Part shown: positions 1 through 30,986 of the stretch, in pieces
How the letters are laid out: each line of letters begins with the position of its first letter
Position numbering within the stretch: the stretch's first letter is position 1
From: a virus
DNA length: 30,986 bases
IMG/VR virus record: IMGVR_UViG_3300010388_000223
Coordinates: 1-30,986 of that record
Direction: 5' to 3' (one strand)
Translations under genes and position numbers: made by a program
The notes under the pieces: generated by a model
Database searches by the model: none
Told to the model about the DNA's origin: nothing
What the model saw: the letters and a program-made list of their open reading frames with translations, nothing else

Positions 1-55
1 AATAAGTATGGTGATCCTGAGTATCGTTTTGATGCGGTGACTGTTGCTCTTGAGG
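1..55. repeat. 55-bp terminal overlap identical to 30932..30986; marks a circularly closed assembly
   Basis: Read directly: nt 1-55 (aataagtatggtgatcc...ctcttgagg) recur exactly as the last 55 nt. The tail-gene reading frame is continuous across the junction. Confidence 0.95.
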
Positions 56-300
56 GTTTGACTGATGTTCAGAAGATTGATGTGTTGCAACTTGATTTGG
101 GGCAGATTGTTCAGGTGAAGTTTACGCCTAATCAGGTTGGTGACGTTATTGAGCGTTATGCTCAGGTTATTGGTATTCAACATAATGTTGGTGTTGACCG
201 GCATACGATCACTTATAGTTTTGGTTCTTTGCAGTATTCGTTTCTTGTGTTGGATGATACTGGGTTTGGTATTTTGGATGAGAACGCTTTGGCGTTTTAG
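1..300 (+). CDS. C-terminal part of distal tail (Dit-like) minor tail protein; continuation of 30011..30986 across the circular junction
   Basis: Position 1 is in frame with 30011 (30932-30011 = 921 = 3x307). Open frame to TAG 298-300. The joined product is about 406 aa. Confidence 0.8.
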   Translation, partial: NKYGDPEYRFDAVTVALEGLTDVQKIDVLQLDLGQIVQVKFTPNQVGDVIERYAQVIGIQHNVGVDRHTITYSFGSLQYSFLVLDDTGFGILDENALAF

Positions 301-301
301 T

Positions 302-314
302 CCGGTAGAATAGG
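302..314 (+). promoter_or_regulatory. Late-gene cassette motif ccGGTAGAATagg (-10-like TAGAAT at 306-311), followed by TTAGGAGTTTTT-ATG
   Basis: The same motif recurs at 26018, 27069, 27938 (variants at 22791 and 24151). TAGAAT matches the actinobacterial TAGAPuT -10 consensus. No clear -35. Confidence 0.5.
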
Positions 315-336
315 GTTATTAGGTTTAGGAGTTTTT

Positions 337-1236: not shown

Positions 1237-1898
1237 TGGCTGGTGCTGGTTGGCGTAGGTTTCAACCTGGTGAGGTTTTAACTGCTTCTAATTTGCAGAC
1301 TTATGGTATTGATCAGAGTGTGCAGGTTTATGCTGGTACTGCTGCTCGTGGTTCGGCTATTGGGACTGCGACTTCTGAGGGCATGATGTCTTATCTTGCT
1401 GATCAGGATAAGTTGCAGTTGGCGACTTCTTCTTCTAACTGGGTGGATGTTTACCCTTCTGTTGCTAACGCTGGGGAAGTCATACAAGTGGTTTACAATA
1501 TTCAAGATACGCAAGTAAATACAACAACTGGTTACCCTGGCGTAACAACTAATTTATCAGCAACAATAACGCCTAAGTTTAACAATTCCAGGATGTTTAT
1601 TTTTGTTTCTCAATATGTTCAACCTGTTTCAACTTCTAACATTTTTGATGGCGGCGTAGGTATTTTCAGAAATAACACTACTGATTTAGGTGGTAATAGC
1701 CTATCTGCTAATGCCGCACAAGGTGCTGGTGGCGCTTTAGCAATTCGTCACTTGGCGTATCTTATGCGCGAAGATTACCCTAATACTACTTCGCCTGTAA
1801 GCTATAACACTAGAATGTGGCTAAGTAATGGGTTGCGTTATGAAGCTCAGCCGAGTAATCAGCGGTCGTCTATTACTATTATGGAAGTCAAAGTTTAA
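1236..1898 (+). CDS. Second tail fibre / receptor-binding protein; its N-terminal ~80 aa are paralogous to the 337..1236 product
   Basis: TAATG coupling. N-terminus MAGAGWRRFQPGEVLTASNLQTY...AARGSAI...SEGMMSYL aligns with MAGSGRKVWVADEVLAAADLQDY...AARASGI...TEGMVTYL. Confidence 0.65.
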   Translation: MAGAGWRRFQPGEVLTASNLQTYGIDQSVQVYAGTAARGSAIGTATSEGMMSYLADQDKLQLATSSSNWVDVYPSVANAGEVIQVVYNIQDTQVNTTTGYPGVTTNLSATITPKFNNSRMFIFVSQYVQPVSTSNIFDGGVGIFRNNTTDLGGNSLSANAAQGAGGALAIRHLAYLMREDYPNTTSPVSYNTRMWLSNGLRYEAQPSNQRSSITIMEVKV

Positions 1899-1900
1899 TT

Positions 1901-2215
1901 ATGAATATTGTTGAAATTCTTACTACTAATTATCGCGGCACTAAGTGGGCTTTGACAGGTAATGATTATGCTGGCCTTGAATGGCTAGATGAAGAAACCC
2001 CTAAGCCTACAGAAGCCGAGCTAAAAAAGCAGTGGGCTGACGTTCAATACCAGACACAACTAGCTGACGTTAAAGCGGCACGCCACTTGGCTTATACTGC
2101 TCCTAACGGTTCTGACGCCGTGTTTATGAAATATCAGCGCGGTGAAGCAACAAAACAAGAATGGCTAGATGCTATACAAGTCGTCAATGATGCTAACCCG
2201 TATCCCGTAAAGTAG
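1901..2215 (+). CDS. Hypothetical protein, possibly a fibre-associated/assembly protein (XkdW-like pattern)
   Basis: 104-aa ORF between fibre and endolysin. The W...LEWLDEETPKPTEAEL pattern is reminiscent of XkdW-type proteins. Function unverified. Confidence 0.55.
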   Translation: MNIVEILTTNYRGTKWALTGNDYAGLEWLDEETPKPTEAELKKQWADVQYQTQLADVKAARHLAYTAPNGSDAVFMKYQRGEATKQEWLDAIQVVNDANPYPVK

Positions 2216-2220
2216 TAGCA

Positions 2221-2934
2221 ATGGCAACTATTAGCGGTATAACACCTATGACGTTAGAACAGTTTTTTGCTATCCCTAACGGAACACAAATATACAACTA
2301 CGGAAACAGTCAATGTGTGGCTTTAGCCAACCAATATGATGAAGGCGTTTTACAAAACCCACTCCCCACAGGTATACAGTCTGCCTATCAATGGTGGACT
2401 CAATACGCTACACAACCTAACCTGAATCAACAGTTTGTGCAGGTATCTGCTTCACCTATGAAGGGTGACATTTTTGTTGGCCGTGGCGGATCATACGATT
2501 CGACTCATGGGCATATTGGTGTTGTGGCTCGTAACTGGGATGGCTCAACTTTCGGTACAATGGAACAAGGCGTTTGGTCTGGATATAACGGCTATGTCAC
2601 TCGATTAAATCGAAACATGGCTAACATTTTAGGTTTCTTACGCCCGATAGAAAACGTAAACCATGATGGAGATGATGAAGTGCCTTCGAGTCAATATTTT
2701 ATAGCAAGTAGTAATAATGCTTCTGGCACTGTTAAAAAGGGTGATGTGTGGGTGCGTGGTTTCCCTGGTGCGCCTCTTACTGCTTTGACTTCTGGTCAAG
2801 CGTATGACTGGTTCCAGTTGCAGAAACTCGACTATAACGCGCCTGGCGTTTATTCTAAGCCTGGGTCATGGTTTGATTTGGCGTTTGCTGAGGATAACAC
2901 TTCTGCCGCTTTGACTAAGAAGGTTCACAGCTAA
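2221..2934 (+). CDS. Endolysin: N-terminal CHAP peptidase/amidase domain plus uncharacterised C-terminal (cell-wall-binding?) domain
   Basis: Cys-His CHAP signature: GNSQCVALANQY ... GDIFV ... THGHIGVV. Lies immediately upstream of the holin. Confidence 0.8.
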   Translation: MATISGITPMTLEQFFAIPNGTQIYNYGNSQCVALANQYDEGVLQNPLPTGIQSAYQWWTQYATQPNLNQQFVQVSASPMKGDIFVGRGGSYDSTHGHIGVVARNWDGSTFGTMEQGVWSGYNGYVTRLNRNMANILGFLRPIENVNHDGDDEVPSSQYFIASSNNASGTVKKGDVWVRGFPGAPLTALTSGQAYDWFQLQKLDYNAPGVYSKPGSWFDLAFAEDNTSAALTKKVHS

Positions 2935-3571: not shown

Positions 3572-3610
3572 AAACCCCTCTAGTTGAGTATTCCTAGAGG
3601 GGTTTTCTTT
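3572..3610. terminator. Bidirectional rho-independent terminator between convergent + (lysis) and - (small-protein) transcription units
   Basis: 12-bp perfect stem aaacccctctag / ctagaggggttt with a 10-nt loop, A-run upstream and T-run downstream. Confidence 0.8.
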
Positions 3611-3737
3611 ATGCTTTCAAGTGTTTATATCCGGTGACGATTATTGCGCCTATGAGGAGCAGTGTGAGCCCGTTGAAGCCGGTCAGAATGATTTGTGCTA
3701 CTGCTGCGGTGAATAGTGCCCAGATTATTAAAGCCAT
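3609..3737 (-). CDS. Small membrane protein (42 aa)
   Basis: Hand translation: MALIIWALFTAAVAQIILTGFNGLTLLLIGAIIVTGYKHLKA. Its ATG overlaps the end of the upstream gene. Below the ORF-track size cutoff. Confidence 0.55.
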   Translation of the reverse strand: MALIIWALFTAAVAQIILTGFNGLTLLLIGAIIVTGYKHLKA

Positions 3738-3886
3738 GCGACTATGATTCCTAACGTGGTGAGTGCCATTACGATTACTGCGACTACGCCACAGCCTACG
3801 GCTAGTGCGCGGTCATCTTCCCATTTTTGTGATGCGTAGGAGTCCTCGTATTGGTTGTAGGGGATTGGGTTGTGTTCGTTTTCCAT
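3728..3886 (-). CDS. Small membrane protein (52 aa)
   Basis: Hand translation: MENEHNPIPYNQYEDSYASQKWEDDRALAVGCGVVAVIVMALTTLGIIVAWL. SD gggagac upstream. C-terminal TM helix. Confidence 0.6.
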   Translation of the reverse strand: MENEHNPIPYNQYEDSYASQKWEDDRALAVGCGVVAVIVMALTTLGIIVAWL

Positions 3887-3895
3887 TAGTCTCCC

Positions 3896-4060
3896 TCACT
3901 TCACGATTTCAATTTTTTGTGGCTTGATGTTGTATGCCCCGTAGTAGGTGCTTTTACGGTCTACGCGGATTGCAGTTACTCCATTGTCAGTGATTTCTGT
4001 TACTTCGCGGATGATGTTAGAACCCTTAATTCGGATGATGTCTCCGATTTTGATTTCCAT
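3896..4060 (-). CDS. Small hypothetical protein (54 aa), first gene of the leftward operon
   Basis: The internal Met of the 73-aa track ORF is preceded by aagaaaGGAAAcaaa, the same leader/SD as the duplicated cassette at 7711-7725. Product MEIKIGDIIRIKGSNIIREV... Confidence 0.65.
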   Translation of the reverse strand: MEIKIGDIIRIKGSNIIREVTEITDNGVTAIRVDRKSTYYGAYNIKPQKIEIVK

Positions 4061-4105
4061 TTTGTTTCCTTTCTTCGGGGCTTCGCCCTCTTTGCTTATG
4101 TATAT

Positions 4106-4133
4106 ACAATAACACACACAAAGACTATGTCAA
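4106..4133 (-). promoter_or_regulatory. Leftward early promoter: TTGACA-N16 (with TGn)-TATTGT
   Basis: Reverse complement reads aaatagtgTTGACAtagtctttgtgtgTGtTATTGTatatacataagc. It is duplicated almost verbatim on the + strand at 7655-7682. Confidence 0.7.
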
Positions 4134-4164
4134 CACTATTTTCAAACATTTTCTAAAAAATATT

Positions 4165-4194
4165 TTGGCAAATGTCAGACCCTATGTCTATACT
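4165..4194 (+). promoter_or_regulatory. Rightward early promoter: TTGGCA-N18-TATACT
   Basis: Read directly. Divergent from the leftward promoter, 27 nt upstream of the 4221 start with SD aagggaa. Confidence 0.55.
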
Positions 4195-4220
4195 CAATAT
4201 CAACCTAGAAAGGGAAACTA

Positions 4221-4643
4221 ATGGTTAGAAATCGTGCAAGCGCAAAAAAAGCAGGAACAGCCTTCGAAACACTCGTCGCAGAATACCTAGCAATGAAACT
4301 AGCTGACATCAGAATTGAACGTCGAGCTAAGACTGGTGCTAAGGATCGTGGCGACATTGCTGGGGTTCTCACTGTTGCTGGTGGCGCGGTAGTTATCGAG
4401 TGTAAGAACACTGCCCGTGATGGGTTGCCTCAGTGGATTAAAGAAGCTGAGATTGAACGTAAGAATGATGATGAGGTTACTGGTCGTACTGTGGCTGGTG
4501 TTGTGGTGCATAAGAAGCATGGTTCTAATAAGGCTGCGGAACAGTATGTGACTATGACTTTGGAGACGTTTGTTATCTTGCTTGAGGGTGGTTCGCCTAA
4601 TGCGCGGTTTGTGGATGTGGCTAAAGAGGTGCGGAACGTATGA
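4221..4643 (+). CDS. PD-(D/E)xK-fold nuclease, Holliday-junction-resolvase-like
   Basis: GTAFETLVAEYL ... DRGDIAGV ... VVIECKN (D...ExK arrangement). First gene of a recombination module. Confidence 0.55.
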   Translation: MVRNRASAKKAGTAFETLVAEYLAMKLADIRIERRAKTGAKDRGDIAGVLTVAGGAVVIECKNTARDGLPQWIKEAEIERKNDDEVTGRTVAGVVVHKKHGSNKAAEQYVTMTLETFVILLEGGSPNARFVDVAKEVRNV

Positions 4644-5245
4644 TTCCTGTTGAGCGTTTTATAGTCTCTAGTCAGACTAAGGATTTGTGGCTTGAGGCGC
4701 GTGACCGTGGCGTTACAGCTACTCAGGTGGCTAAGGCTTCTACACCGGCTGGGTTGAAGGAGGTTTTGGCGCAAATTGAGAATCCTCAACCTGTTGATGT
4801 TAATGCTTTCATGTTGTGGGGTGTTGAGCGTGAACCTTATATTGCTCATGTTGTGAAGGAGCGTTTTGGGGTGTTGCCTAACGATTGGCTTATTGCTGCT
4901 GATGGCTCTGGTAATGAGTGGATGATGGCAACTCCTGACGGTTTGTCGCTGGATCACACTGTGATTGGTGAATATAAGACTTCTGGGAAACCGTTGGATG
5001 TTATCCCGTTGAACTATCTCAGGCAGATTCAATGGCAACTGTTTGTGACTGGTGCTGAACAATGTGTGTTTGCGTATGAGTTGCGGATGGAAGGGCCGGA
5101 AGGTTTTGTTCCTGGGTTTGATGTTGAATGTCAGATTGTGGAACGTAACGAGGAGATGATTTCTAAGCTGGTTGATACGGCTCAGAAGGTACAGGAGCAC
5201 GCTGTTTATTGGGAGCGTGCACAACGAGAAAAGGGAGAAAAATAA
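4640..5245 (+). CDS. YqaJ/lambda-Exo-like recombination exonuclease
   Basis: GVTATQVAKA ... WGVEREPYIA ... ATPDGL ... IGEYKT pattern of the YqaJ viral recombinase domain. ATGA coupling. Confidence 0.7.
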   Translation: MIPVERFIVSSQTKDLWLEARDRGVTATQVAKASTPAGLKEVLAQIENPQPVDVNAFMLWGVEREPYIAHVVKERFGVLPNDWLIAADGSGNEWMMATPDGLSLDHTVIGEYKTSGKPLDVIPLNYLRQIQWQLFVTGAEQCVFAYELRMEGPEGFVPGFDVECQIVERNEEMISKLVDTAQKVQEHAVYWERAQREKGEK

Positions 5246-22688: not shown

Positions 22689-22740
22689 CACGGCTAGTTG
22701 CGGTAAAGTAGAAATACCGCAGGTGGTGTGGTTAGGATTA

Positions 22741-22770
22741 GGTCAGCTTTCAAGCTGGCCTTTTCTGTTT
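22741..22770 (+). terminator. Second terminator-like hairpin in the MCP leader region
   Basis: ggtcagc-tttcaa-gctggcc (one G-T pair) followed by ttttctgttt. Confidence 0.5.
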
Positions 22771-22790
22771 GCGCGACTTTTATTGTATAT

Positions 22791-22800
22791 GCGGTATACT
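22791..22800 (+). promoter_or_regulatory. gcGGTATACT -10-like box upstream of the major capsid gene
   Basis: Variant of the GCGGTAGAAT late motif, 90 nt upstream of ATG 22891. Confidence 0.45.
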
Positions 22801-22890
22801 AAAACTGGTTGAGTGTTAGCACCGCCGTAAATGTTCCGTGAACTTGCGTGTAATCACCAGTTCGCAACCTTACCTTATTGGAGATTAAAG

Positions 22891-24012
22891 ATGAGTGAGT
22901 TCATCAAGTCTCAGCAGGAAGTACGCGCAAACCTTATTGCTCAGGTTCGTGAAATCATTGATTTTGCTGAATCCGAGAAGCGTGGACTGCTCGCTGAGGA
23001 AACCCAGAAAATTGAGCGCATTGAAGCAGACATCCGTTCCGCTGACGATGCTCTCGCAATTGCTACTCGTAACGAGGAGCGCAAGGCTGAGGCTGCTACC
23101 GCTGCCGCTGGTTTTGTTCCTGCTGTAGAAGCACGTTCTGACGCTGACATCTTCCGCGCAATGGCTCGTGGAGAAGTTCGTGGCCACAACTTTGAACAGC
23201 GTGCAACTCTCGTTCCTGCGACTGCAACTGTTCCTGTATCGTTCCTTGACCGTGTATACGGTGTTGCTCGCCTCGTTGGGCCTATGCTTGACGTTGCTGA
23301 GGTTATCACTCGTAGCTCTGGTAACGACCTGCGTATTCCTGTTTACACTGCTTTCAGCACTGCTGCACAGGTTGCTGCTGGTTCTGCAATTGCTGAATCT
23401 AACCCAACCTTTGACAGCATTCTTCTTCAGCCAAAGAAAGAAGCCTTCATTGTTCCAGTTGCTAACGAACTGATTACTGACGCTGGTTTCGACATTGAGG
23501 CTGTTATTGCTGAGCAGGCTGGTAACGCTATCGGTTACGCTGTAAACGGTACTGCTACCGCTAAGCTGGTTGCTGCTGCTGGTTCTGGCGTTACCGCTTC
23601 TACCGCAACTGCTATCTCTGCTGACAACCTGATTGACCTCGCCTACTCGCTTGATGGTGCTGCTCGCCGTCTGCCAGGTGTTGGTTACATGGCTAACGGT
23701 TCCACCATTGGTGCTATCCGTAAGCTGAAGGACACTGCAGGAAACTACCTTTACCAGGTAGGCGTTGGTCAGCCTGACACCTTTGCTGGTTTCGCTGTTT
23801 ACGAGAACCCTGCTCTTGACAGTGTTGCTACTGGCAAGAAGGCTGTTCTGTTCGGTGACTACCGTTCTGTCAAGATTGCTACAACTGGTCTTGATGTTGC
23901 TGTTTCGTCTGACGCATACTTTGCTAACGACGTTACTGGTTACCGTTTCACCTACCGTGTTGACTCTGGTCTAACCCACAGCTCACACGTTAAGTACCTG
24001 CTCCAGCCATAA
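22891..24012 (+). CDS. Major capsid protein (HK97 fold) with N-terminal delta/scaffolding domain
   Basis: SD ggag + ATG 22891. Coiled-coil N-terminus (QQEVRANLIAQVREIIDFAESEKR...). Position after the protease. Distinct C-ending codon preference. Confidence 0.85.
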   Translation: MSEFIKSQQEVRANLIAQVREIIDFAESEKRGLLAEETQKIERIEADIRSADDALAIATRNEERKAEAATAAAGFVPAVEARSDADIFRAMARGEVRGHNFEQRATLVPATATVPVSFLDRVYGVARLVGPMLDVAEVITRSSGNDLRIPVYTAFSTAAQVAAGSAIAESNPTFDSILLQPKKEAFIVPVANELITDAGFDIEAVIAEQAGNAIGYAVNGTATAKLVAAAGSGVTASTATAISADNLIDLAYSLDGAARRLPGVGYMANGSTIGAIRKLKDTAGNYLYQVGVGQPDTFAGFAVYENPALDSVATGKKAVLFGDYRSVKIATTGLDVAVSSDAYFANDVTGYRFTYRVDSGLTHSSHVKYLLQP

Positions 24013-24028
24013 GCTGAGTAGCTAGATT

Positions 24029-24068
24029 CATCCCCTGTCTTGTAGGTTAGGCAGGGGATGTTCTAGTT
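24029..24068 (+). terminator. Terminator-like hairpin after the MCP gene
   Basis: catcccctg-14 nt-caggggatg then ttctagtt. A second 9-bp hairpin taatcccct...aggggatta lies at 24075-24113. Confidence 0.6.
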
Positions 24069-24150
24069 AAACGGTAATCCCCTCAAGACAACCACAATGC
24101 CTTAAGGGGATTAGATAGTTGGGGGAACTATCGTGACTAATCTAATACAG

Positions 24151-24163
24151 GTTATAGAATAGA
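24151..24163 (+). promoter_or_regulatory. gttaTAGAATaga -10-like box upstream of the glycosyltransferase pair
   Basis: TAGAAT at 24155-24160, 26 nt upstream of ATG 24187. Confidence 0.4.
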
Positions 24164-24186
24164 GTCAACCTATTTTTGAAAGGGAA

Positions 24187-25374
24187 ATGATGGCTGTAGA
24201 GAAATTGCGCGGTGTCGTATCTGTTGCTTCTAACTCGTATGATTCGCCTACTGGCTATGGGGTGCAGGTGAAGCTTTTGATTGACCGTATGGTTAAGCAT
24301 GGTTTGAAGGTTGCTAACCTGTCTAATTATGGGCTTGAGGGTCGTATTGATGAGATTAAGACTCCTCACGGGAAGATTCCTCATTATCCTCGTGGATTCA
24401 AGCCTTACAGTGATGATGTCATTCCGGTGTGGCATGAGGATCATAAGTCGCATAATCCTGATGTGAAAGATGCTGTAATTACTCTTTATGATCAGTGGGT
24501 TTACAATGACCTAAAGTTTGATGGTGACATTATTGCCTGGACTCCACTAGATCACGTCACGTTGCCACCTAACGTGCTCAAGTTTCTTTTACGCCCTAAT
24601 GTTCACCCTGTGACTATGTCACCGCATGGGCAACGTCAGTTAGAGCGTGCCGGTGTGGATAGTGTGTATATTCCTCACGCGATTGATACGAGTGTGATGA
24701 AGCCTACTGATGATTTTGTGGGTGTGCCGATTCGCCAATATTTGGATGTTCCTGATGATGCGTTTCTGGTGTCTATGGTTGCAGCTAATAAGGCTAATGG
24801 TTTGGTGCATCGTAAGGCGCTTGCTGAGCAGTTGATGGCTTTCAGTATTTTCCGGCAAGAGTATCCTGACGCTTATCTTTATATTCATAGTGAGCCTAGC
24901 CCTGTGTTTGGTGGGTTTAATATTCCAGCCTTGTTGAGGGCGTGTGGCTTGTCTGATGAGTATGTGCGTATTTTGAATAGTGACGTGAACCGTACTGGAT
25001 ATCCTGACGAGTTTTTGGCGGCAGTGTATACGGGTTCTGACGTTATGTTGCAGGTGTCGTATGGTGAAGGTTTTGGTGTGCCTGTGATTGAGGCTCAGGC
25101 GTGTGGCACTCGTGTTATCACCTCTAATTGGGCGGCGACTCAAGACTTGGCTGGTGATGATTCTTTCTTGGTTGATGGGCAACCGTTCTGGGATGAACCT
25201 CAACAGTCGTTCTACAACATTCCTAACATTGGTTCTATCGTGAACGCGCTAAAACTTGCTTATGCTGCTCCTCGTGGAATCAGTCAGGCTTCTATAGAGT
25301 TTGCTAAACAGTTTGAGGTTGATCGTGTGTGGAACTGGTATTGGATGCCCTATTTGCGTGAGTTCTTCAAATGA
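24187..25374 (+). CDS. Glycosyltransferase, GT-B fold (family 1/4-like)
   Basis: YGEGFGVPVIEAQACGTRVITSNWAATQDL (E-X7-E region). SD aaggga. Confidence 0.75.
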   Translation: MMAVEKLRGVVSVASNSYDSPTGYGVQVKLLIDRMVKHGLKVANLSNYGLEGRIDEIKTPHGKIPHYPRGFKPYSDDVIPVWHEDHKSHNPDVKDAVITLYDQWVYNDLKFDGDIIAWTPLDHVTLPPNVLKFLLRPNVHPVTMSPHGQRQLERAGVDSVYIPHAIDTSVMKPTDDFVGVPIRQYLDVPDDAFLVSMVAANKANGLVHRKALAEQLMAFSIFRQEYPDAYLYIHSEPSPVFGGFNIPALLRACGLSDEYVRILNSDVNRTGYPDEFLAAVYTGSDVMLQVSYGEGFGVPVIEAQACGTRVITSNWAATQDLAGDDSFLVDGQPFWDEPQQSFYNIPNIGSIVNALKLAYAAPRGISQASIEFAKQFEVDRVWNWYWMPYLREFFK

Positions 25375-26018
25375 TTCCTAACCTTATTGTTCCTACGCTG
25401 AATCAGTATGAGAAGCTTCAGCGTATGGTTTATGGCATTGACTATCCTGTTGAACATCTGCTCATTATTGATAACGGTGGCAGGCTTGCTGATTTGCGTA
25501 TTCCTGATGCGGTGCAGAAACTTACTATCCTAAATATGCCTTCTAATTTGGGTGTGTCTACGTCATGGAATCTGGGTATCAAATCGTTTCCTCATGCTGA
25601 CCGCTGGTTTGTTGCTTCTGATGACATCATGTTTGAGCCTGGTGCTCTTGAGGATTGGTTTAATATTTCGCATAGGGAACGCCTGATTACTTCTAGCGAG
25701 TCACCGTATTGGCAGTTTTTTTGTATTGGTGAAGAAGTTGTTGGCAACGTGGGCTTGTTTGATGAGGCTATTCATCCAGCTAATTTTGAGGATGATGAGT
25801 ATGAGTGGCGTTGTGAACAGTTAGGGTATGAAGTTCACAGGGCAGACATAGGGCACTTTCATGAGAAACATTCCACTGTGTTTAGCCCTGAGTATGTTTC
25901 TAAGAATCGTGGGAGTTATGTTTTGAATGAGTCTTATTTTGAGACTAAGAAGCGTGAGCGTGATTATAGTGATGGGTTTTGGACTTTATCGCGTAGACGC
26001 ATTTTGAGCTGGGATTAG
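25371..26018 (+). CDS. Glycosyltransferase, GT-A fold (family 2-like)
   Basis: LIVPTLNQYEKL, LLIIDNGG, NLGVSTSWNLGI, FVASDDIMFEPGAL (DxD). ATGA coupling. Confidence 0.7.
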   Translation: MIPNLIVPTLNQYEKLQRMVYGIDYPVEHLLIIDNGGRLADLRIPDAVQKLTILNMPSNLGVSTSWNLGIKSFPHADRWFVASDDIMFEPGALEDWFNISHRERLITSSESPYWQFFCIGEEVVGNVGLFDEAIHPANFEDDEYEWRCEQLGYEVHRADIGHFHEKHSTVFSPEYVSKNRGSYVLNESYFETKKRERDYSDGFWTLSRRRILSWD

Positions 26019-26029
26019 CGGTACAATAG
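26018..26029 (+). promoter_or_regulatory. Late-gene cassette motif gcGGTACAATagg followed by TTAGGAGTTTATT-TTG
   Basis: Aligns over ~37 nt with the 302-339 cassette. Confidence 0.5.
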
Positions 26030-26051
26030 GTATAGGATTTAGGAGTTTATT

Positions 26052-26660
26052 TTGGCTATTACTAACGGCTATGCCACTCTCGCTGATGTGAAGGCTGCTT
26101 TGCGGATCACTGATTCTGTTGATGATGCGCTGATTGAGATTGCTATTGAGTCTGCTTCTCGTGAAATTGACGGGTACTGTAACCGCGTGTTCTATTCGAC
26201 TAGCGGAACTAGGGTTTATCAGCCTCAAGATGCGTTTGTTTGTCAGACTGATGACATTGTTTCTGTTACTACTCTTAAGACTTCTGACAATGCTCAAAGC
26301 TATGACAATACTTGGGCTGTTACTGATTTTCAGCTTGAGCCGTTGAATGGTGTATCTGGTGGTTTGGTTCAGCCTGCTACTCGTATTCGTGCTGTAGGTG
26401 ATTACCTGTTTCCTATTTGGACTATCGGTTCAACATATAACAATTTTGCGCCGGTTCAGATTGTGGGTGTGTTTGGTTGGTCGAGTGTTCCTACTGCGGT
26501 AAAGCAGGCGGCACTCTTGTTGGCTATGCGCCAGTTTAAGCGTTACGATTCCCCACTGGGTGTGGCAGGCTTTGGCGATTTGGGTGCTATCCGTGTTGGC
26601 CGTGTTGATCCTGATGTTCAGGCTTTGCTTGACCCGTTCCGTAAGGCTGTAGCCTCGTGA
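26052..26660 (+). CDS. Head-tail connector/adaptor (phage gp6-like)
   Basis: TTG start after aggag. YATLADVKAALRITDSVDDALIEIAIESASREIDGYCNR is the classic gp6-like N-terminus. Confidence 0.75.
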   Translation: MAITNGYATLADVKAALRITDSVDDALIEIAIESASREIDGYCNRVFYSTSGTRVYQPQDAFVCQTDDIVSVTTLKTSDNAQSYDNTWAVTDFQLEPLNGVSGGLVQPATRIRAVGDYLFPIWTIGSTYNNFAPVQIVGVFGWSSVPTAVKQAALLLAMRQFKRYDSPLGVAGFGDLGAIRVGRVDPDVQALLDPFRKAVAS

Positions 26661-27058
26661 GCATTGCTGACATCCGCAACGGCTTAGGTGCTAATCTGGG
26701 CACGATTCGTGGCTTGCGTGTAGCTGAGACTATTCCCGATAATCCTAGTCCGCCTATCGCTGTTATAGCGTTGGGAAATGTGGTTTATGATGGCGCATTT
26801 CATGGTGGCCTTGTAACCTACAATTTTACTGTGTCTGTGATTGTGGGGCGTGTTGCTGAGCGTGAGGCTCAACGCCGTCTGGATGCTTTCATTTCTACAG
26901 GTACGGGTTCTATTAAGGGTGCTATAGAGTCTGAGAAGTCTCTTGGTGGTTCAGCGTATGATGTGCGCGTGTCTGAGATGACTAATGTGGGTGCGGTGCA
27001 GATTGGTGATGCAACGTATTTGGCGTGTGATTTCGCTGTTGCGGTTTATGCTAACTAG
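26657..27058 (+). CDS. Head-tail joining / neck or tail-terminator-like protein
   Basis: GTGA coupling. 133 aa between connector and major tail. Function from position only. Confidence 0.5.
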   Translation: MSIADIRNGLGANLGTIRGLRVAETIPDNPSPPIAVIALGNVVYDGAFHGGLVTYNFTVSVIVGRVAEREAQRRLDAFISTGTGSIKGAIESEKSLGGSAYDVRVSEMTNVGAVQIGDATYLACDFAVAVYAN

Positions 27059-27068
27059 CATCATTTAT

Positions 27069-27079
27069 GCGGTAGAATA
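27069..27079 (+). promoter_or_regulatory. Late-gene motif gcGGTAGAATa upstream of the major tail gene
   Basis: TAGAAT at 27073-27078. TTAGGAG at 27107-27113. Confidence 0.5.
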
Positions 27080-27113
27080 AAAGTAGCGTTTTAGCTTTAA
27101 TAATTTTTAGGAG

Positions 27114-27530
27114 ATGATTGTGGCTAAGTTTGTTGCTACTGACGTAAAGACAACCATTAACGGTACGGACTTTAGTGATCACATTGCTGCTGTCACTTTT
27201 GACCTGACTGCTGATGAGATTGAGACAACTGCTTTCGGTACTGCGTGGCGTCAACGTGTTGGCGGCGGTCTGAAAGATGCTTCTATCTCGATTGACTTCC
27301 ACCAAGATTTTGGTGCAGGTTCGGTTGATGCTGTTCTGTTCCCTCTGTTTGGTTCTATCGCTACTGTAGTGTGTGTGCCAACTAGCGGTTCTGTATCGGC
27401 AACTAACCCTTCTTACACTGGAACTTTCTCAGTGACCGCATATAGCCCTGTTGCTTCTAACGTGGGTGACCTTGCAACCCTGTCAGTATCTTGGCCTTCT
27501 GCTGGTACTGTAACTCGAGGAACTGTTTAA
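27114..27530 (+). CDS. Major tail (tube) protein
   Basis: 138 aa, directly upstream of the frameshifted chaperone pair. The true start may be GTG 27120 (better SD spacing). Confidence 0.7.
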   Translation: MIVAKFVATDVKTTINGTDFSDHIAAVTFDLTADEIETTAFGTAWRQRVGGGLKDASISIDFHQDFGAGSVDAVLFPLFGSIATVVCVPTSGSVSATNPSYTGTFSVTAYSPVASNVGDLATLSVSWPSAGTVTRGTV

Positions 27531-27534
27531 ACAT

Positions 27535-27786
27535 ATGCAACCTCTTAACCTACAAATCAGTTTCGTGGATGGCACTTCTTCTGAAGTGTCAACTACGGCT
27601 GCTGACTATATCAAGTTTGAGACTCATTTTGATAAGTCTATTGCTACGTTGGGGAATGATGTTCGTCTAACGTATATGTTCTTTTTGGCGTGGGCTGCTG
27701 CTAAGCGTACTGGTGTGACTGACCTTGAGTTTGAGGCTTGGTCTGAGACTGTTGCTATGGTTGGGGAGTCTGACCCAAAAGCATAA
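27535..27786 (+). CDS. Tail assembly chaperone (G-like)
   Basis: 83 aa. Ends just after the slippery heptamer. Position between the major tail and tape measure genes. Confidence 0.8.
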   Translation: MQPLNLQISFVDGTSSEVSTTAADYIKFETHFDKSIATLGNDVRLTYMFFLAWAAAKRTGVTDLEFEAWSETVAMVGESDPKA

Positions 27787-27944
27787 AGGGTTTGGGTGAT
27801 TCGTCTACGCATTGGATGATTGCCCAGCTTGCTTATGAGTATAAGCTTTCCCCTAATGAGCTTCTTGAGCTTGATCCGCGTATGTTGTGGACTTTACAGC
27901 GTTATCTTGTAGCGCGTGTGAATGCACAGTCTAAGTCGCGGTAG
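27535..27944 (+). CDS. Tail assembly chaperone, -1 frameshift product (G-T-like, about 136 aa)
   Basis: The -1 frame is open from 27780 to TAG 27942-27944 (SIKGLGDSSTHWMIAQLAYEYKLSPNELLELDPRMLWTLQRYLVARVNAQSKSR). Confidence 0.7.
27774..27780 (+). promoter_or_regulatory. Programmed -1 ribosomal frameshift slippery heptamer C CCA AAA
   Basis: X XXY YYZ in the zero frame (GAC CCA AAA GCA TAA), 4 nt before the G stop. Confidence 0.75.
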
Positions 27945-27949
27945 AATGG
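27938..27949 (+). promoter_or_regulatory. Late-gene motif gcGGTAGAATgg followed by TAAGGAGTTTCT-ATG
   Basis: TAGAAT at 27942-27947. It overlaps the stop of the frameshift product. Confidence 0.5.
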
Positions 27950-27965
27950 TATCTAAGGAGTTTCT

Positions 27966-28478
27966 ATGATTACGGCTAGTGTTGATGCTAAGAGTGTTGC
28001 TGACACTTTCCGTATTTTGCGTAAGGTTGAACCTAGTCTTGTTCAGGAATTGCGTAAAGAGTTGCAAAGTGATTTGAAACCTTTGGCTAAAGCTATTGCC
28101 GCTAAGTATCCTAGTGAGCCTACGTTGCGTGGCTTTGAACAGTCTTATGGCCGTTGGGGTTGGGATAAGGTCACTGGTACTGTAAAGATTACGCCTGGTA
28201 AGACTCGTAATGGTGCTGGTCGTAATAATCTTGTGTCTTTGTCTATGAATTATAAGACTGCTACGCCGTTTGTTTTGGATATGATTGGGCGTAAGAATCC
28301 TGGTATTAGTGCTCAGGGTCAGGCTTTGTATCGGGCTGTTATGGCGCAGTTTCCTGGGTGGCCTAATGGTGGGCGTATTTTCTATAAGCCTTTTAAGGAT
28401 GCTCGTGAGCAGGTTGTTTCTGCTGCTGAGGTCACTATTAATCGTTGGAGTGTTAAGGTTAGTGAGGAGTTGAAGTAA
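27966..28478 (+). CDS. HK97 gp10-like virion (neck/tail-completion) protein in an atypical position
   Basis: The N-terminus SVADTFRILRKVEPSLVQELRKELQSDLKPLAKAIAAKYP resembles the gp10 family. It lies between the chaperone and tape measure genes. Confidence 0.5.
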   Translation: MITASVDAKSVADTFRILRKVEPSLVQELRKELQSDLKPLAKAIAAKYPSEPTLRGFEQSYGRWGWDKVTGTVKITPGKTRNGAGRNNLVSLSMNYKTATPFVLDMIGRKNPGISAQGQALYRAVMAQFPGWPNGGRIFYKPFKDAREQVVSAAEVTINRWSVKVSEELK

Positions 28479-30007
28479 TGGCTATTTCATTACCTATCGT
28501 TTCCAAGTTTGATGATAAGGGTGTTAATCAGGCTGAGTCTGCGCTTGACCGTTTGGGTGGTTTTGCTAAGGGTGCAGGGTTGGCTATTGGTGCGGCGTTT
28601 GTGGCTGCTGGTGCGGCTGCTGTAGCGTTTGGGGCTGCTTCTGTTAAGGCTGCTGCTGAGGCTGAGGCTGTTACTCGTGGTCTTGAGAATGCGGTTAAGA
28701 ACGCTAACCAGTTTGGTGATACGGCTTCTTCTATCGGTAAGGCTACTGAGGCTTTAGATAAGCACTCTACTAAGCTTGCTGAGTTGTCTGGTATTGATGA
28801 CGAGATTATTAATCAGATTAAGACTGGTTGGCTGGCTGTTCCTTCTCTTGCGGCTATGGGCGTTGAGGGTATTAATAATCTTGCTCAGGTTGTTGCTGAT
28901 ACTGCTGCTGGTACTGGTAAGGATGTTCAGGCTATTGGTTTGGCGTTTCAGCGTGTAGCTGGTGACACTGAGTCTGCGTTTAATAAGTTGACTCGTGCCG
29001 GTATTGTTTTCACTGATGAGCAGAAGGCTACGTTCGATAGTATTTTGCAGACTAATGGCGAGATGGCTGCTCAACAGTATCTTATTGAGCAGTTGGGCCA
29101 GAAGTATAAGGGTGCTGCTGAGGCTGCCGCTAACCCGTTTGCTAGGTTGAATGTTATTTTCGAGAACTTGAAGGAAACTATTGGCGCGGCTTTGTTGCCT
29201 GCTATTGAGAAGATAGTTCCTATGGTTGCTGATTTTGTTTCTAAGCTTGTGGCTACGCCTGAGTTTGAAGCTTTCTTGGTTGCTTTGTCTGAGGCTTTTC
29301 TTGGCCTTGTTGAAGCGTTGATGCCACTGTTGCCAACGATCGCTGATCTCATTTTATCCTTGATGCCACCATTGATTGAGATTGTTAAAACTCTTGCGCC
29401 ACTGGTTGTGCAATTGGTTGATGCTTTCCTTCCACTGTTGCCTATCTTTGCTGATATGGTTGAGCAATTATTACCACCGTTGGTAGAGCTGATTTCTAAC
29501 TTTGTTAAAATCTTTACTGATAATCCTCAGTTTATGGATAGCGCTATTCAGGGCTTTAAGGATTTCCATGAGGTTATTAAGCCGATTGCTTTTGTGTTGC
29601 AAACTATTGCTGATTTCTTAGGCCAGATAGGTAATAAGAAAACTGTTATTGATGGGCTTGAGGCTCGTGCTCGCGCTGCTCAGAAGGCTGTTAATCCTTT
29701 CTCACTTGCTGGCCCTACTTATGCAGGTAACTGGGGTAAGATTCCTGGTCAGGCTGAGGGTGGCGTTACTATGCGTAGTGGTTTGTCTTGGGTTGGTGAG
29801 CAGGGCCCTGAGTTGTTGAATATGCCTCGTGGCGCTCAGGTTATTCCTCTTGATCGTATTGCTTCTGGTGGTGGCGGTAATGTTACTAATATTAGTTTTA
29901 CTGTGACTGCTGGTATGGGTGCTGATGGTGCTGCACTTGGTGAACAGATTGTTAACGCAATCCGCCGTTATGAGCGCACTTCTGGTGCAGTGTTTGCGAA
30001 AGCATAA
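28478..30007 (+). CDS. Tape measure protein
   Basis: 509 aa, Ala/Leu-rich and helical, with hydrophobic central repeats (LLPTIADLILSLMPPLIEIV..LLPIFADMVEQLLPPLVELI). TAATG coupling. Confidence 0.85.
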   Translation: MAISLPIVSKFDDKGVNQAESALDRLGGFAKGAGLAIGAAFVAAGAAAVAFGAASVKAAAEAEAVTRGLENAVKNANQFGDTASSIGKATEALDKHSTKLAELSGIDDEIINQIKTGWLAVPSLAAMGVEGINNLAQVVADTAAGTGKDVQAIGLAFQRVAGDTESAFNKLTRAGIVFTDEQKATFDSILQTNGEMAAQQYLIEQLGQKYKGAAEAAANPFARLNVIFENLKETIGAALLPAIEKIVPMVADFVSKLVATPEFEAFLVALSEAFLGLVEALMPLLPTIADLILSLMPPLIEIVKTLAPLVVQLVDAFLPLLPIFADMVEQLLPPLVELISNFVKIFTDNPQFMDSAIQGFKDFHEVIKPIAFVLQTIADFLGQIGNKKTVIDGLEARARAAQKAVNPFSLAGPTYAGNWGKIPGQAEGGVTMRSGLSWVGEQGPELLNMPRGAQVIPLDRIASGGGGNVTNISFTVTAGMGADGAALGEQIVNAIRRYERTSGAVFAKA

Positions 30008-30010
30008 ACT

Positions 30011-30986
30011 ATGGGAACTTTAACAACAGTAGAAATCGGCGTATACCTTAACACTGCCAACGCGCCTTATTTTCGACTCAATGACCCTGTTAAAGGAAAA
30101 TTAAATAACACTAGCTATCGTCTTGCTGGGCCTATCTTTTATGACGTTACTGATCGTGTTACTGCTGTTTCTGTTAAGCGTGGTAAGAACCGTCAACTGG
30201 AACGCTACAATGCTGGGCAGGCTACTGTTGTTTTAAACAATGAAGATAGATTGTTTGACCCGTTGAATACGGCTTCTATTTTTTATGGCAACATTATTCC
30301 GCGCCGCCAAATTCGTATCAATTCTGGTGGGTATAACCAGTTTGTTGGTTTGATTGAGGACTGGAATTATGATTATGACGTTTCTGGTAAGTCTACTGCT
30401 CAAATAGTTTCGGCTGATGGTTTTACTTTGTTGGCTCAACAGTCTTTGACTGCTGGCACTGCGACTGCTCAAACTACTGGTGCGCGTATTAATGCGGTGT
30501 TGTCTATGCCTTCTGTGGCGTGGCCTCTTGAGGATAGAAATGTTGATACTGGGCTTGCGGCGTTGGGTGCTGATGTTTGGTCTGCCACAGATAATGCTTT
30601 AACGTATTTGCAGGAAGTTGAGGCTTCTGAGCAGGGTCAGTTCTTTATTGACCGTGATGGATATGCTAGGTTTGTGAATGGTGGCGTTACTCCTACTAGT
30701 GGTTTGTCTGCTGTGTTGTTTAGTGATGCTGGTGATGGTGTGCCTTATACGGGTGCTCAGGTTTCTTATGGTACTGAACTTTTGTTTAATACTGTTTCTG
30801 TAACTTATCCGGCTGGTACTGCTACTGCCGCTAATGTGGCTTCTCGTAATCTTTACGGTATTACTACTACGAGTGTTGATACTTTGTTGCAGACTTCTAC
30901 TGCTGCTGAGAATCTGGCTTTGTTTTGGGTGAATAAGTATGGTGATCCTGAGTATCGTTTTGATGCGGTGACTGTTGCTCTTGAGG
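30011..30986 (+). CDS. Distal tail (Dit-like) minor tail protein, N-terminal part; continues at 1..300
   Basis: ATG 30011 right after the tape measure gene. Open to the window end. MGTLTTVEIGVYLNT...VSVKRGKNRQLERYNAGQATVVLNNEDRLFDP is typical of actinophage Dit-type proteins. Confidence 0.8.
   Translation, partial: MGTLTTVEIGVYLNTANAPYFRLNDPVKGKLNNTSYRLAGPIFYDVTDRVTAVSVKRGKNRQLERYNAGQATVVLNNEDRLFDPLNTASIFYGNIIPRRQIRINSGGYNQFVGLIEDWNYDYDVSGKSTAQIVSADGFTLLAQQSLTAGTATAQTTGARINAVLSMPSVAWPLEDRNVDTGLAALGADVWSATDNALTYLQEVEASEQGQFFIDRDGYARFVNGGVTPTSGLSAVLFSDAGDGVPYTGAQVSYGTELLFNTVSVTYPAGTATAANVASRNLYGITTTSVDTLLQTSTAAENLALFWVNKYGDPEYRFDAVTVALE
30932..30986. repeat. Second copy of the 55-bp terminal overlap
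   Basis: Exact identity with nt 1-55. Confidence 0.95.

Follow-up and report, generated by a model that had tools for sequence, protein, structure and literature searches.

Here, we show that the strand composition of a complete phage genome flips at its cohesive-end site (cos, ~16792), and that the flip recurs in dozens of diverged relatives and in the closest cultured relative, Pontimonas phage phiPsal1 (MG835450). The bias tracks the DNA strand, not the gene or the coding strand, and the flip looks like a lasting mutational footprint of DNA-end copying or repair.

The window analysed is a whole stretch of 30,986 nt, in which a 55-nt terminal direct repeat (1..55 identical to 30932-30986) shows that the genome is circularised and complete, at 30,931 bp. 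It belongs to a cos-packaging siphophage of aquatic low-GC Actinobacteria. The chance that different genomes were joined at block boundaries into a chimeric metagenomic assembly, which a previous sequence-only reading had wanted excluded, is negligible. No independent-sample contig crosses the boundaries at 1480, 2430, 7680, 8040 and 14320, as a chimera would have it, and no evidence favouring a chimera was found. Against it stand the circular assembly with its 55-nt overlap, and an identical sequence, over the parts compared, in the ENA and Logan assemblies of run ERR1597337; the ENA MEGAHIT-style contig k127_48706 measures 31,058 nt (30,931 + 127) and matches at 100% over the 13,653 nt compared. 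Moreover, relatives run collinearly across 4320, 9350, 10700 and 16900, L339 crosses 2430 with 89% identity, and the ORFs stay intact over the intragenic switches.

On the + strand the bases total A 7439, C 5841, G 8193 and T 9513 (57.1% G+T). The sequence-only reading had described two opposite composition regimes that switch inside genes, and its hand counts are exact (361-420, A11 C8 G20 T21; 16561-16620, A22 C25 G7 T6). Penalised optimal partition of the G+T indicator yields 12 segments under a penalty of 10 and 18 under a penalty of 7, far from chance given that shuffled sequence always yields 1. The change points lie at 1480, 2430, 4100, 4320, 5740, 6540, 7680, 8040, 9350, 10700, 11610, 14320, 16400, 16710, 16900, 18450 and 24640, and they bear out the intragenic switches at 1480 (in 1236-1898), 2430 (endolysin), ~4320 (in 4221-4643) and 10700 (dnaB). 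Eight of the nine A/C blocks drawn by eye are significantly G+T-poor compared with the genome (p 1.5e-3 to 1e-44); support for the ninth (3130-3290) is borderline (p 0.0045), and the segmentation misses it. The description of the regimes as opposite is true of only two blocks, 14321-16790 (G+T 0.43) and 4101-4320 (0.38), and the remainder are about neutral (0.44-0.53).

The flip itself coincides with cos. Contigs of seven relatives start at ~16792: four have their first base exactly at genome position 16792 (L317, L319, L322, L323), L318 opens with the same sequence, and L011 and L012 open at ~16792-16794. A further ~45 relatives' contigs terminate 3-230 nt past their HNH homologue. The cumulative keto skew reaches its raw local minimum at 16835 and its detrended minimum at 16899. 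Using K3, the G+T fraction at third codon positions, we find 0.05 over the final 40 HNH codons and 1.00 over the first 40 terS codons, 200 nt apart (0.05 and 0.05, then cos, then 1.00 and 1.00 by 20-codon windows); non-coding G+T is 0.31-0.39 left of cos compared with 0.52 right of it. Approaching cos, K3 in the right-end arm goes from 0.5 to 0.05 and G+T drops to 0.26 at 16401-16710, and the four-fold sites of the HNH gene (A.49, C.34, G.04, T.13) are the mirror of those of the late genes. Right of cos, K3 is 0.93 in terS (16880-17323), falls along terL from 0.98 in the first 50 codons to ~0.70 at the gene end, and is 0.75-0.93 for late genes in general; across the plateau at 18451-30931 it is 0.61-0.91, with the lowest value (0.61) and more C3 in the major capsid gene (22831-24012). 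The hairpin and T run upstream of cos look, from their letters, like an intrinsic terminator of the HNH gene; cos is flanked by this terminator and a probable late promoter.

Table 1 Features of the genome that bear on the strand-bias flip
Feature	Position	Strand	Basis
Near-neutral block, G+T 0.47 over 1481-2430	1400..2430	+	Fibre C-terminus / small ORF / CHAP-lysin cassette
Three small genes, own third positions 75-83% A/C	3609..4060	-	K3; + strand still G+T-rich
Short A+C island, G+T 0.38	4101..4320	+	Early promoter region and first 35 codons of 4221-4643
RecE/YqaJ-type 5'-3' recombination exonuclease	4640..5245	+	phrog_434 E 2e-22; PF09588 YqaJ
Near-neutral block	9351..10700	+	Replication initiator gene and first ~100 dnaB codons
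Stand-alone Mre11-like metallophosphoesterase nuclease	12774..13922	+	phrog_284 exonuclease E 3e-53
Right-end arm, inverted A+C-rich bias, G+T 0.43	14321..16791	+	Segmentation; conserved in relatives
GT4-family glycosyltransferase, K3 0.38	15295..16359	+	Pfam Glyco_trans_1_4 E 1e-11
HNH endonuclease, K3 0.15; final gene before cos	16346..16678	+	phrog_338 E 9e-7
G+C hairpin then T run (CCCCCCACGTCATAGATGGGGGG TATCTTTTTTG)	16725..16757	+	Read from sequence
Physical genome end (cos); left end ~16792 (GCCTTTTCTGTATATCCGCAG...)	16780..16800	.	Contig starts of relatives
G+T bias peak at left end	16792..18450	+	Segmentation, K3
Large terminase terL	17320..18837	+	Anchor for gathering relatives
Late structural genes, G+T plateau, K3 0.61-0.91	18451..30931	+	Segmentation, K3

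The minus-strand genes separate the strand from the coding direction. As the sequence-only reading had noted, those at 3609-4060 sit in + strand G+T-rich DNA, and their own-strand K3 values are 0.18, 0.17 and 0.25 (0.30 and 0.40 in phiPsal1); the strand-linked asymmetry that it had offered as one option is therefore present. The synonymous flips that it had listed extend to every codon family: among ACN codons T makes up 0.66 in late genes and A 0.60 in the right-end block, and GAG/GAA is 0.76 versus 0.24. Codon positions 1-2 shift too, given that K3 correlates with K1 (rho 0.59) and K2 (rho 0.51). Because all codon families shift, K1 and K2 follow and no late gene is less biased than the capsid gene, the pressure is general and not a matter of tRNA matching. 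Non-coding DNA is less skewed (0.44-0.63) than third codon positions, so there may be some selective component in addition to mutation.

The pattern is shared by the whole clade, of which 70 relatives were gathered in IMG/VR via terL. Among 22-52 relatives the mean keto skew steps at terS from -0.07/-0.10 to +0.16/+0.23. Unrelated last genes before cos are still A+C-type (L016, L023, L029, L051, phiPsal1), and terS has a K3 of 0.83-0.93 where the last pre-cos genes are non-homologous. HNH homologues immediately upstream of cos have K3 values of 0.15-0.48, below that of terL at 17 of 17 such loci and at 29 of 31 loci overall, and HNH K3 increases farther from cos (rho 0.45-0.50, p 0.012-0.005). 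Glycosyltransferase homologues have a K3 of 0.25-0.44 in 22/22 cases, with the gradient along the gene kept across lineages, and the K3 decay along terL is repeated in seven lineages. In some relatives (L023, L029) long A+C arms of 6-8 kb end at cos. HK97 and phiC31, which share the HNH-cos-terS layout, show no flip (K3 0.41-0.61 throughout). The flip is specific to a clade of aquatic actinobacterial phages.

Recent substitutions also differ in direction on the two sides of cos. Third-position singletons among 88-95% identical relatives run K>M on the left and M>K on the right, with M>K / K>M rate ratios of 0.42 (p 5e-4) and 1.57 (p 0.04), respectively, from only 88 + 193 polarised singletons spanning ~1.5 kb on the left side and 3.6 kb on the right side. 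At third positions of the left A+C block, recent K>M and M>K changes number 33 each, implying an equilibrium of 0.29 that is identical to today's value; the block is compositionally stationary. Left rates fit the reverse-complemented right rates better (Spearman 0.73 vs 0.50; Poisson logL 59.6 vs 6.8), and the left substitution matrix is roughly the reverse complement of the right. Hence, the large A+C block reflects position and a process still under way, and was not recently imported. In the G+T block right of cos, singleton rates imply an equilibrium of ~0.61 compared with a present 0.87, a mismatch for which selection, an artefact of parsimony or saturation, or imports from relatives with less bias could be responsible.

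The other option of the sequence-only reading was recombination, either as recent imports or inversions or between lineages of mirror-image bias, with a composition not yet ameliorated. As an account of the A+C blocks we consider this unlikely, although at least one boundary is a real junction: L333 is 91% identical up to ~1399 and unalignable beyond, so that its alignment stops where the 1480 boundary lies, and a true recombination junction is placed at ~1400-1480 within a swapped fibre/lysin cassette. Close relatives exchange this cassette, and in other samples an identical holin adjoins at least four different ones. The initiator, the HNH gene at 6084-6767 and 13940-14617 are without nucleotide homologue in the closest relatives, and dnaB and nuclease homologues span K3 0.28-0.98 across lineages, so donors of differing composition exist. 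However, the extreme block at 14.3-16.8 kb keeps its collinearity and orientation in relatives of ~76% nucleotide identity, is A+C-type in all of them even with unrelated genes there, and shows no drift towards G+T; collinearity, relatives' composition and stationarity largely refute import or inversion for this block. Inversion is not borne out elsewhere either, given that BLAST matches to relatives are all + / +. Orthologues of dnaB, terL, the glycosyltransferase and 4221-4643 keep the same internal profiles, and in the early region the lack of a homologue in relatives predicts low G+T only weakly (p 0.088). We propose two sources for the near-neutral blocks: exchangeable cassettes (fibre/lysin) and conserved local features (5' parts of dnaB and the first early gene). 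The low-K3 5' part of 4221-4643 is found in three relatives too, the low-K3 start of dnaB is kept in five lineages, and 10701-11610, directly after the 9351-10700 block, is strongly G+T.

The explanation that we favour, and hold to be reasonably probable, is that two strand-linked pressures are superimposed, one genome-wide and one linked to the cos ends. The genome-wide pressure would keep the + strand G+T-rich regardless of gene direction, and the end-linked pressure would enrich G+T, over ~1-3 kb from each cos end, on whichever strand has its 5' terminus there. Immediately right of cos this is the + strand, whose silent sites would be pushed to ~100% G/T; immediately left of cos it is the - strand, so that the + strand reads A+C-rich. 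On this view the opposite-regime block would reflect an effect of position that is still at work and that changes polarity where the chromosome physically ends. At each infection, synthesis or resection may start at the cos nicks or ends and proceed outwards both ways, displacing or rewriting the 5'-terminated strand. This could take the form of nick translation or strand displacement starting at both 3'-OH groups of annealed cos, 3'-5' resection by the Mre11-like nuclease followed by fill-in, end-primed recombination-dependent replication, or a bidirectional origin adjoining cos. If the strand is exposed, its deamination (C>T, A>G) could give the observed sign; if it is rewritten, G:T mispairing could.

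Two end-processing genes are present in the genome, encoding the Mre11-like nuclease and the RecE/YqaJ-type exonuclease. The former, a candidate end-processing enzyme, has 2530 homologues and is a hallmark gene of the phage clade; its AF2 model (pLDDT 69) has Mre11 4tug/3auz as best Foldseek matches in the PDB (E 9e-8, TM 0.34-0.41). The latter has 5'-3' polarity, which, were ssDNA deamination the mutagen, should lead to a sign contrary to the one observed. An end-linked process also leaves several internal features unaccounted for, namely the 220-nt island at 4101-4320 and the low-K3 5' parts of 4221-4643 and dnaB. A lambda-type origin would be expected near the initiator and DnaB, 6-7 kb away from cos, which speaks against the end-linked view.

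Ordinary leading/lagging skew from a bidirectional origin at or near cos with very unequal arms has a modest chance of being correct. A rightward fork co-directional with nearly all genes would copy most of the circle and a leftward head-on fork would stop within a few kb. In favour of this, keto skew goes from negative to positive when read 5' to 3', as it does at an origin; the bias is tied to strand and not gene; and the long A+C arms of L023 and L029 fit. However, a simple origin does not predict the decay of G+T excess within ~1.5 kb right of cos (terL 0.98 to 0.70, in the seven lineages), 9.7-10.4 kb is where the initiator and dnaB genes are located, along with a weak iteron-like pair, and the early region has blocks matching the late genes in G+T. 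Selection in place of mutation, through expression-phase codon classes, unstructured mRNA or ssDNA, or a packaging need for strand-asymmetric DNA to either side of cos, seems rather improbable. It would account for third positions skewed beyond non-coding DNA, gene-specific K3 kept among orthologues, the surplus of K>M singletons in the G+T block, as if G/T-ending codons were favoured, and the A+C-rich 5' ends in the first genes of operons. Yet minus-strand genes use the opposite codon set, matching strand and not expression class; the HNH and terS genes are neighbours with packaging roles yet occupy the two extremes; codon positions 1-2 move together with every codon family; the most highly expressed gene, the capsid, is the least biased late gene; HNH homologues range in K3 from 0.15 to 0.91 according to location; and HK97 and phiC31 use the same packaging system without skew. 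Transcription-associated asymmetry, by non-template deamination or transcription-coupled template repair, is very improbable. Coding-strand G+T is highest in the late genes, which are presumably heavily transcribed, and a terminator and probable late promoter lie on either side of cos, but the coding strands of minus-strand genes are A+C-rich, which contradicts it, as are + strand genes upstream of cos, and the divergent promoter region 4061-4220 has a polarity opposite to prediction.

In bacterial chromosomes and plasmids the leading strand carries G>C and T>A skew, with sign switches at origin and terminus. The phage likewise has a keto excess on one strand regardless of gene orientation, an abrupt sign change at a fixed landmark at which GC and AT skew both flip, and substitution patterns on the two sides that are roughly reverse complements. 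It differs in a far larger magnitude (silent sites 5% vs 100% G/T), in switching at a cohesive-end site and not a known origin, in very unequal arms (~2.5 kb vs 28 kb) and in an excess that weakens away from the landmark in either direction, much like a dipole on a plateau. Mitochondrial heavy/light-strand asymmetry is attributed to single-stranded time, and varies in strength with constant sign unless the control region is inverted. Here too, C>T and A>G on the exposed strand would give a G+T-rich strand, four-fold sites are comparably extreme and amino-acid composition is shifted, but the phage sign inverts inside one co-oriented gene array, at the chromosome end. In linear dsDNA viruses replicating by strand displacement from both ends (adenovirus, phi29), Grigoriev is said to have described end-to-centre skew switches in 1999. 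As there, G+T is enriched on each 5'-terminated strand close to that strand's end, the polarity expected if both termini start synthesis that displaces that strand. In contrast, the phage has cos/HNH/terminase packaging, an initiator and a DnaB helicase, with no protein-primed polymerase among its annotated genes, and its inverted arm is short, with an effect that decays within 1-3 kb. The exchanged, less biased fibre/lysin cassette with its sharp junction resembles the mosaic modules of phages (morons, host-range and lysis cassettes); the main A+C block is conserved, positional and at compositional equilibrium, and thus unexplained by mosaicism. The packaging layout is shared with HK97 and phiC31, whereas the skew is not. 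With phiPsal1, although TerL is only 57% identical, the phage shares terS, terL, portal, protease, HK97-fold capsid, tail and lysis architecture, the exonuclease, WhiB, initiator and Mre11-like nuclease, and the same skew pattern.

The compositional mosaic that the sequence-only reading had drawn by eye is confirmed, and it is stronger than described. The + strand is 57.1% G+T, and both hand counts of base composition were exact on recount. Optimal-partition segmentation, used in place of a greedy binary segmentation that missed short blocks, cuts the window into 12-18 segments versus one in shuffled sequence, and it recovers nearly all of the A/C-type blocks together with all four switches placed inside open reading frames (at 1480, 2430, ~4320 and 10700). 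Two opposite regimes had been proposed; this holds for the main A+C block at 14321-16790 and for a 220-nt island at 4101-4320, whereas the other blocks are approximately neutral (G+T 0.44-0.53). The G+T fraction at third codon positions (K3) is 0.75-0.93 in the late, structural genes, with four-fold sites at T 0.55-0.79 and G 0.13-0.29, and 0.38-0.82 in the early region. The HNH endonuclease gene at the right end of the main block is the mirror image of the late genes, with a K3 of 0.15 and four-fold sites at A.49, C.34, G.04 and T.13; those of terS are T.70, G.22, A.04 and C.04.

Bases 1-55 are identical to the final 55 bases, which makes the window a circularised assembly with 30,931 unique bases. 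Its gene content predicts a cos-type siphophage. As in HK97-like cos phages, the predicted HNH gene lies immediately upstream of cos (the physical genome end, ~16792) and is followed by terS, terL, portal, protease and an HK97-fold capsid gene, and the ends are defined, with recurrent contig ends at 16792. The likely hosts, judging from WhiB and from the relatives, are aquatic low-GC Actinobacteria. A megablast of 25 kb against the deposited phages in INPHARED gave zero matches, and the nearest cultured phage, Pontimonas phage phiPsal1 (TerL 57%), surfaced only in a protein-level search.

Predicted genes of the window, with coordinates, strand and basis of assignment
Feature	Coordinates	Strand	Basis
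HNH endonuclease	16346-16678	+	PHROG HNH match
terS	16880-17323	+	
terL	17320-18837	+	TerL_ATPase/nuclease domains
Portal, protease, HK97-type capsid			Phage_portal, Peptidase_S78, Phage_capsid domains
Tail genes, two fibre genes, CHAP endolysin, holin			Window gene content
Three small minus-strand genes	3609-4060	-	
Holliday-junction resolvase, RecE/YqaJ-type exonuclease, WhiB, Mom-like protein			Window gene content
Replication initiator, DnaB, Mre11-like nuclease, GT4 glycosyltransferase			Window gene content

In 20-codon windows, K3 declines through the glycosyltransferase gene and HNH down to 0.05 and 0.05, stands at 1.00 and 1.00 at the start of terS and at 1.00, 0.95 and 1.00 at the start of terL, and drops back to about 0.7-0.8 within ~1.5 kb right of cos. 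Expressed as log-odds, the departure from the late-gene plateau is large in both directions: the plateau (K3 0.78) corresponds to a logit of 1.3, terS to 2.6, the terL start to 3.9 and HNH to -1.7. GC and AT skew both reverse sign at this fixed landmark (four-fold sites, terS versus HNH), and non-coding G+T is 0.31-0.39 left of cos versus 0.52 right of it; a terminator-like hairpin lies at 16725-16757. Among contigs of the relatives, L317, L319, L322 and L323 start exactly at window position 16792, L318 opens with the same sequence, L011 and L012 start at the homologous position, and ~45 others terminate 3-230 nt past their HNH homologue. Given these recurrent starts and ends, the flip coincides with the physical end of the genome.

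Three sequence elements around cos are candidate terminase recognition sites: the direct repeat TTCGAACAC, present twice at 16683-16705; the direct repeat ACATATAGTGGT, on either side of cos at ~16706 and ~16836; and the motif CCGCAGTT(C/G)A(G/A)ACCC at 16792-16825, just inside the left end, which is kept in L007, L011, L012, L020 and L318. The last of these, a close relative with an identical terS protein, has an inserted N6/N4 methyltransferase gene that separates terS from the left end (L318:1-830), the inserted gene having a K3 of 0.79 versus 0.96 for terS.

Relatives were gathered with TerL and nuclease anchors, giving >200 related loci, over which the averaged keto skew moves from about -0.1 to about +0.2 at terS. 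In L004, L016, L023, L029, L042 and L051, K3 is 0.15-0.46 in the + strand genes that come last before cos and 0.68-0.93 in terS, and several of the former bear no relation to the window's own last genes. The same is seen in phiPsal1, which comes from culture (terS 0.88, last genes 0.20-0.41). At 29 of 31 loci, homologues of the HNH gene (30-77% identity) have a K3 below that of the accompanying terL, and this holds for all 17 loci where HNH abuts cos; their K3 increases with distance from cos (rho 0.45-0.50), one copy 4.8 kb away reaching 0.91. All 22 glycosyltransferase homologues have a K3 of 0.25-0.44, and both the decay along terL and the drop along the glycosyltransferase gene are repeated in every lineage examined. 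For the nuclease gene, K3 gave no clear trend with distance to the contig end, because the overall offset differs between lineages; the within-locus comparison of HNH with terL was informative. These comparisons argue that the pattern belongs to the clade and to the position, not to this genome or its particular genes. HK97 and phiC31 have a K3 of 0.41-0.61 throughout despite the same HNH-cos-terS layout, so the effect is specific to the aquatic clade. Two loci were left out as probable assembly artefacts: L015:1-6500 has an apparent misassembly at the genome end, with terL and portal repeated in inverted form upstream of terS, and L316:1-8300 appears to have terS/terL fused there to unrelated, unskewed minus-strand genes.

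The strand-linked asymmetry suspected from the sequence is borne out by genes that run the other way. In the window's three minus-strand genes, own-strand K3 is 0.17-0.25 (75-83% A/C at third positions), and in the two of phiPsal1 it is 0.30 and 0.40, roughly 1 minus the K3 of the adjacent + strand genes. That the bias follows the DNA strand argues against both codon classes and transcription-coupled asymmetry, and the latter is further contradicted by A+C-rich coding strands in the minus-strand genes, HNH and the glycosyltransferase gene alike. Synonymous choices do flip between regimes, as had been noted. Translational selection on codon usage would confine the bias to such choices, make it strongest in highly expressed genes and restrict it to certain codon families. 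Against this, every four-fold and two-fold family shifts together, K3 is correlated with the G+T fraction at first (rho 0.59) and second (rho 0.51) positions, and among the late genes the bias is weakest, with extra C at third positions, in the capsid gene, whose expression is presumably the highest; this last point speaks against tRNA-driven selection as the main cause. An exposure gradient of the mitochondrial type, which is monotonic, of one sign and set by two origins, does not fit a K3 plateau of 0.7-0.9 over 14 kb, a mosaic early region and an inversion of sign. At four-fold sites of the late genes, depletion of C is 2-5 times stronger when a pyrimidine precedes (0.02-0.10) than when G does (0.18-0.21), which is compatible with a UV dipyrimidine component or with a preference for CGC/GGC codons; UV alone leaves the depletion of A and the strand inversion unexplained. 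The phage may carry modified adenine, as a Mom-like DNA modification protein is predicted at 6994-7635 (phrog_1384, E 5e-53; PF25680), with a separate GNAT acetyltransferase nearby (8350-8964). The Mom-like gene is present in only 4 of the relatives fetched and is thus not the cause of a clade-wide bias.

Import, inversion, recombination between lineages and chimeric assembly had also been put forward, and they fare differently. A recently imported main block should be drifting toward the resident composition. Instead, 14998-16790 is collinear in relatives, at ~76% identity in L154 and L232 and 88-91% in L324-L330, and its composition is stationary. A four-taxon parsimony spectrum drawn from relatives of 66-85% identity suffered from too much saturation and bias to be read, and we therefore polarised third-position singletons with closer relatives (88-95% nucleotide identity, to the left and right of cos), found by exact-protein look-ups (the HNH protein gave no exact match, the gene being uncalled in the source assemblies). 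Left of cos, changes from A/C to G/T number 33 per 1552 opportunities and the reverse 33 per 646 (rate ratio 0.42, p 5e-4), so that the two directions balance in number and the equilibrium they imply (0.29) is the value seen today (0.29). Right of cos the numbers are 27 of 746 and 115 of 4999 (rate ratio 1.57, p 0.04), and the G+T block stands above its implied equilibrium (0.61 implied versus 0.87 present), a gap behind which may lie the tendency of parsimony at saturated, biased sites to underestimate the fast direction. The twelve left-hand rates, although counts are modest, agree more closely with the right-hand rates when these are reverse-complemented (Spearman 0.73) than on the same strand (0.50), and the reverse-complemented rates also predict them far better. 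Balanced counts and mirrored rates indicate that the A+C block is maintained in place by a process mirroring that across cos. The main block is not a fading import but is positional, conserved and ongoing, and for it the original interpretation is wrong; what stands of that interpretation is the strand-linked asymmetry and one real recombination junction.

That junction bounds 1481-2430, which sits in a cassette swapped among close relatives: L333 has 91% identity to the window until ~1399 and is unrelated beyond, at least four different combinations of fibre, small ORF and lysin precede an identical holin in other samples, and 1400-2430 is absent, replaced or differently related in close relatives, as expected of horizontal acquisition. 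Nothing is inverted, since every BLAST match to relatives is co-oriented. A chimera is not supported either. An ENA contig of run ERR1597337 (31,058 nt, or 30,931 + 127) is 100% identical to the window across the 13.6 kb compared, and the remaining half is matched, gene for gene, by a Logan contig of that run; relatives bridge the boundaries at 4320, 9350, 10700 and 16900, L339 bridges 2430, and those at 1480, 7680, 8040 and 14320 are covered only by the assemblies of ERR1597337 itself. Within the early region, stretches that have no homologue in relatives tend only weakly to be poor in G+T (p 0.088). Near-neutral composition over the first 50 codons of dnaB recurs in five lineages, and low K3 over the first 35 codons of 4221-4643 in four; both 5' features are conserved and not recent. 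The same K3 gradient runs through every copy of the CHAP endolysin, but these copies are ~92% identical and hence not independent. The neutral-to-G+T step at 10.7 kb, by the initiator gene, has the same polarity as the cos step and could mark the true origin; a search for iterons near the initiator found only one weak 18-nt pair.

Several further features were seen along the genome. A second predicted HNH endonuclease (Pfam HNH, E 5e-11) is encoded at 6084-6767; the closest relatives have no nucleotide homologue of this gene, which has the look of a mobile insertion. Four tandem paralogous small ORFs at 13946-15003 (81, 110, ~87 and 74 aa) share YTPTTEEVR...FDRWLAEVKA motifs and 30-75-nt DNA repeats of 78-97% identity, with only partial homologues, in L156 and L157. 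A ~115-nt module of promoter, 5' UTR and start codon occurs twice in inverted orientation (4051-4166 and 7622-7735, 80-82% complementary), one copy heading the minus-strand genes (4060 to 3609) and the other the + strand gene 7726-7905. A perfect-stem hairpin flanked by T/A runs (3563-3614), probably a bidirectional terminator, separates the lysis genes from the minus-strand genes. The two glycosyltransferase genes, at the right end (15295-16359) and beside the capsid gene (24187-25374), suggest glycosylation of the virion or of DNA; phiPsal1 has glycosyltransferases in its structural region too.

Near each end, the strand terminating 5' there is G+T-rich, and this end effect fades over 1-3 kb, superimposed on a + strand G+T plateau that spans the whole genome. 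Outward synthesis could be primed by the 3'-OH groups at cos, and any process of this kind would give the observed sign. It might take the form of nick translation or strand displacement from the two nicks of an annealed cos site, of 3'-5' resection followed by fill-in, of end-primed recombination-dependent replication, or of a bidirectional origin beside cos with a short-lived leftward head-on fork; sequence cannot choose among these. The displaced strand would be prone to C>T and A>G deamination; alternatively, the rewritten strand would gather G:T mispair errors. The phage's own 5'-3' exonuclease, with deamination as the mutagen, would predict the opposite sign. For resection, the candidate enzyme would be the clade's putative Mre11-like nuclease (12774-13922), which has invariant D, GD, GSNH, HGH and GHxHH motifs and zero Pfam matches, and whose model (pLDDT 69) finds Mre11 as its best Foldseek matches (E 9e-8, with a TM of only 0.34-0.41). 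Its true start is probably M19 (12774) and not 12720, and no Rad50/SbcC partner was seen; this stand-alone Mre11-like metallophosphoesterase has >2500 metagenome homologues. We tentatively propose, at somewhat under an even chance, that the cohesive ends are recurrent start sites of strand-specific synthesis or resection in each infection cycle. Where the host's repair is slow or reduced, the mutations so caused would be frequent enough to replace nearly all silent sites over the 1-3 kb next to each end.

Strand skew is a routine aid for finding origins and checking assemblies, and compositional oddities in phages are routinely taken as horizontal transfer. The extreme switch described here, set within an array of co-oriented genes, is no case of either; it is tied to a physical DNA end, conserved in a large clade of abundant aquatic actinophages and still being produced. 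If the cohesive ends act as proposed, the genome itself would keep a natural, quantitative record of how ends are processed and which way forks run in an uncultured group of phages. An end-linked origin of the bias would allow sequence alone to locate cos and report end processing in unculturable phages, and would offer a strong natural case of position-dependent mutation pressure that reshapes protein composition too. It would also mean that, in this group, bias affects composition-based detection of 'foreign' DNA, host prediction from codon adaptation, and phylogenies of terS, terL and HNH. A literature search returned no account of a cos-centred skew switch or of this clade's bias, and the phiPsal1 publication is without analysis of the phage. 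The phenomenon falls in the known class of replication- or repair-linked strand skews, within which it is unusual in how extreme it is, in being anchored at cos and in having the shape of a dipole.
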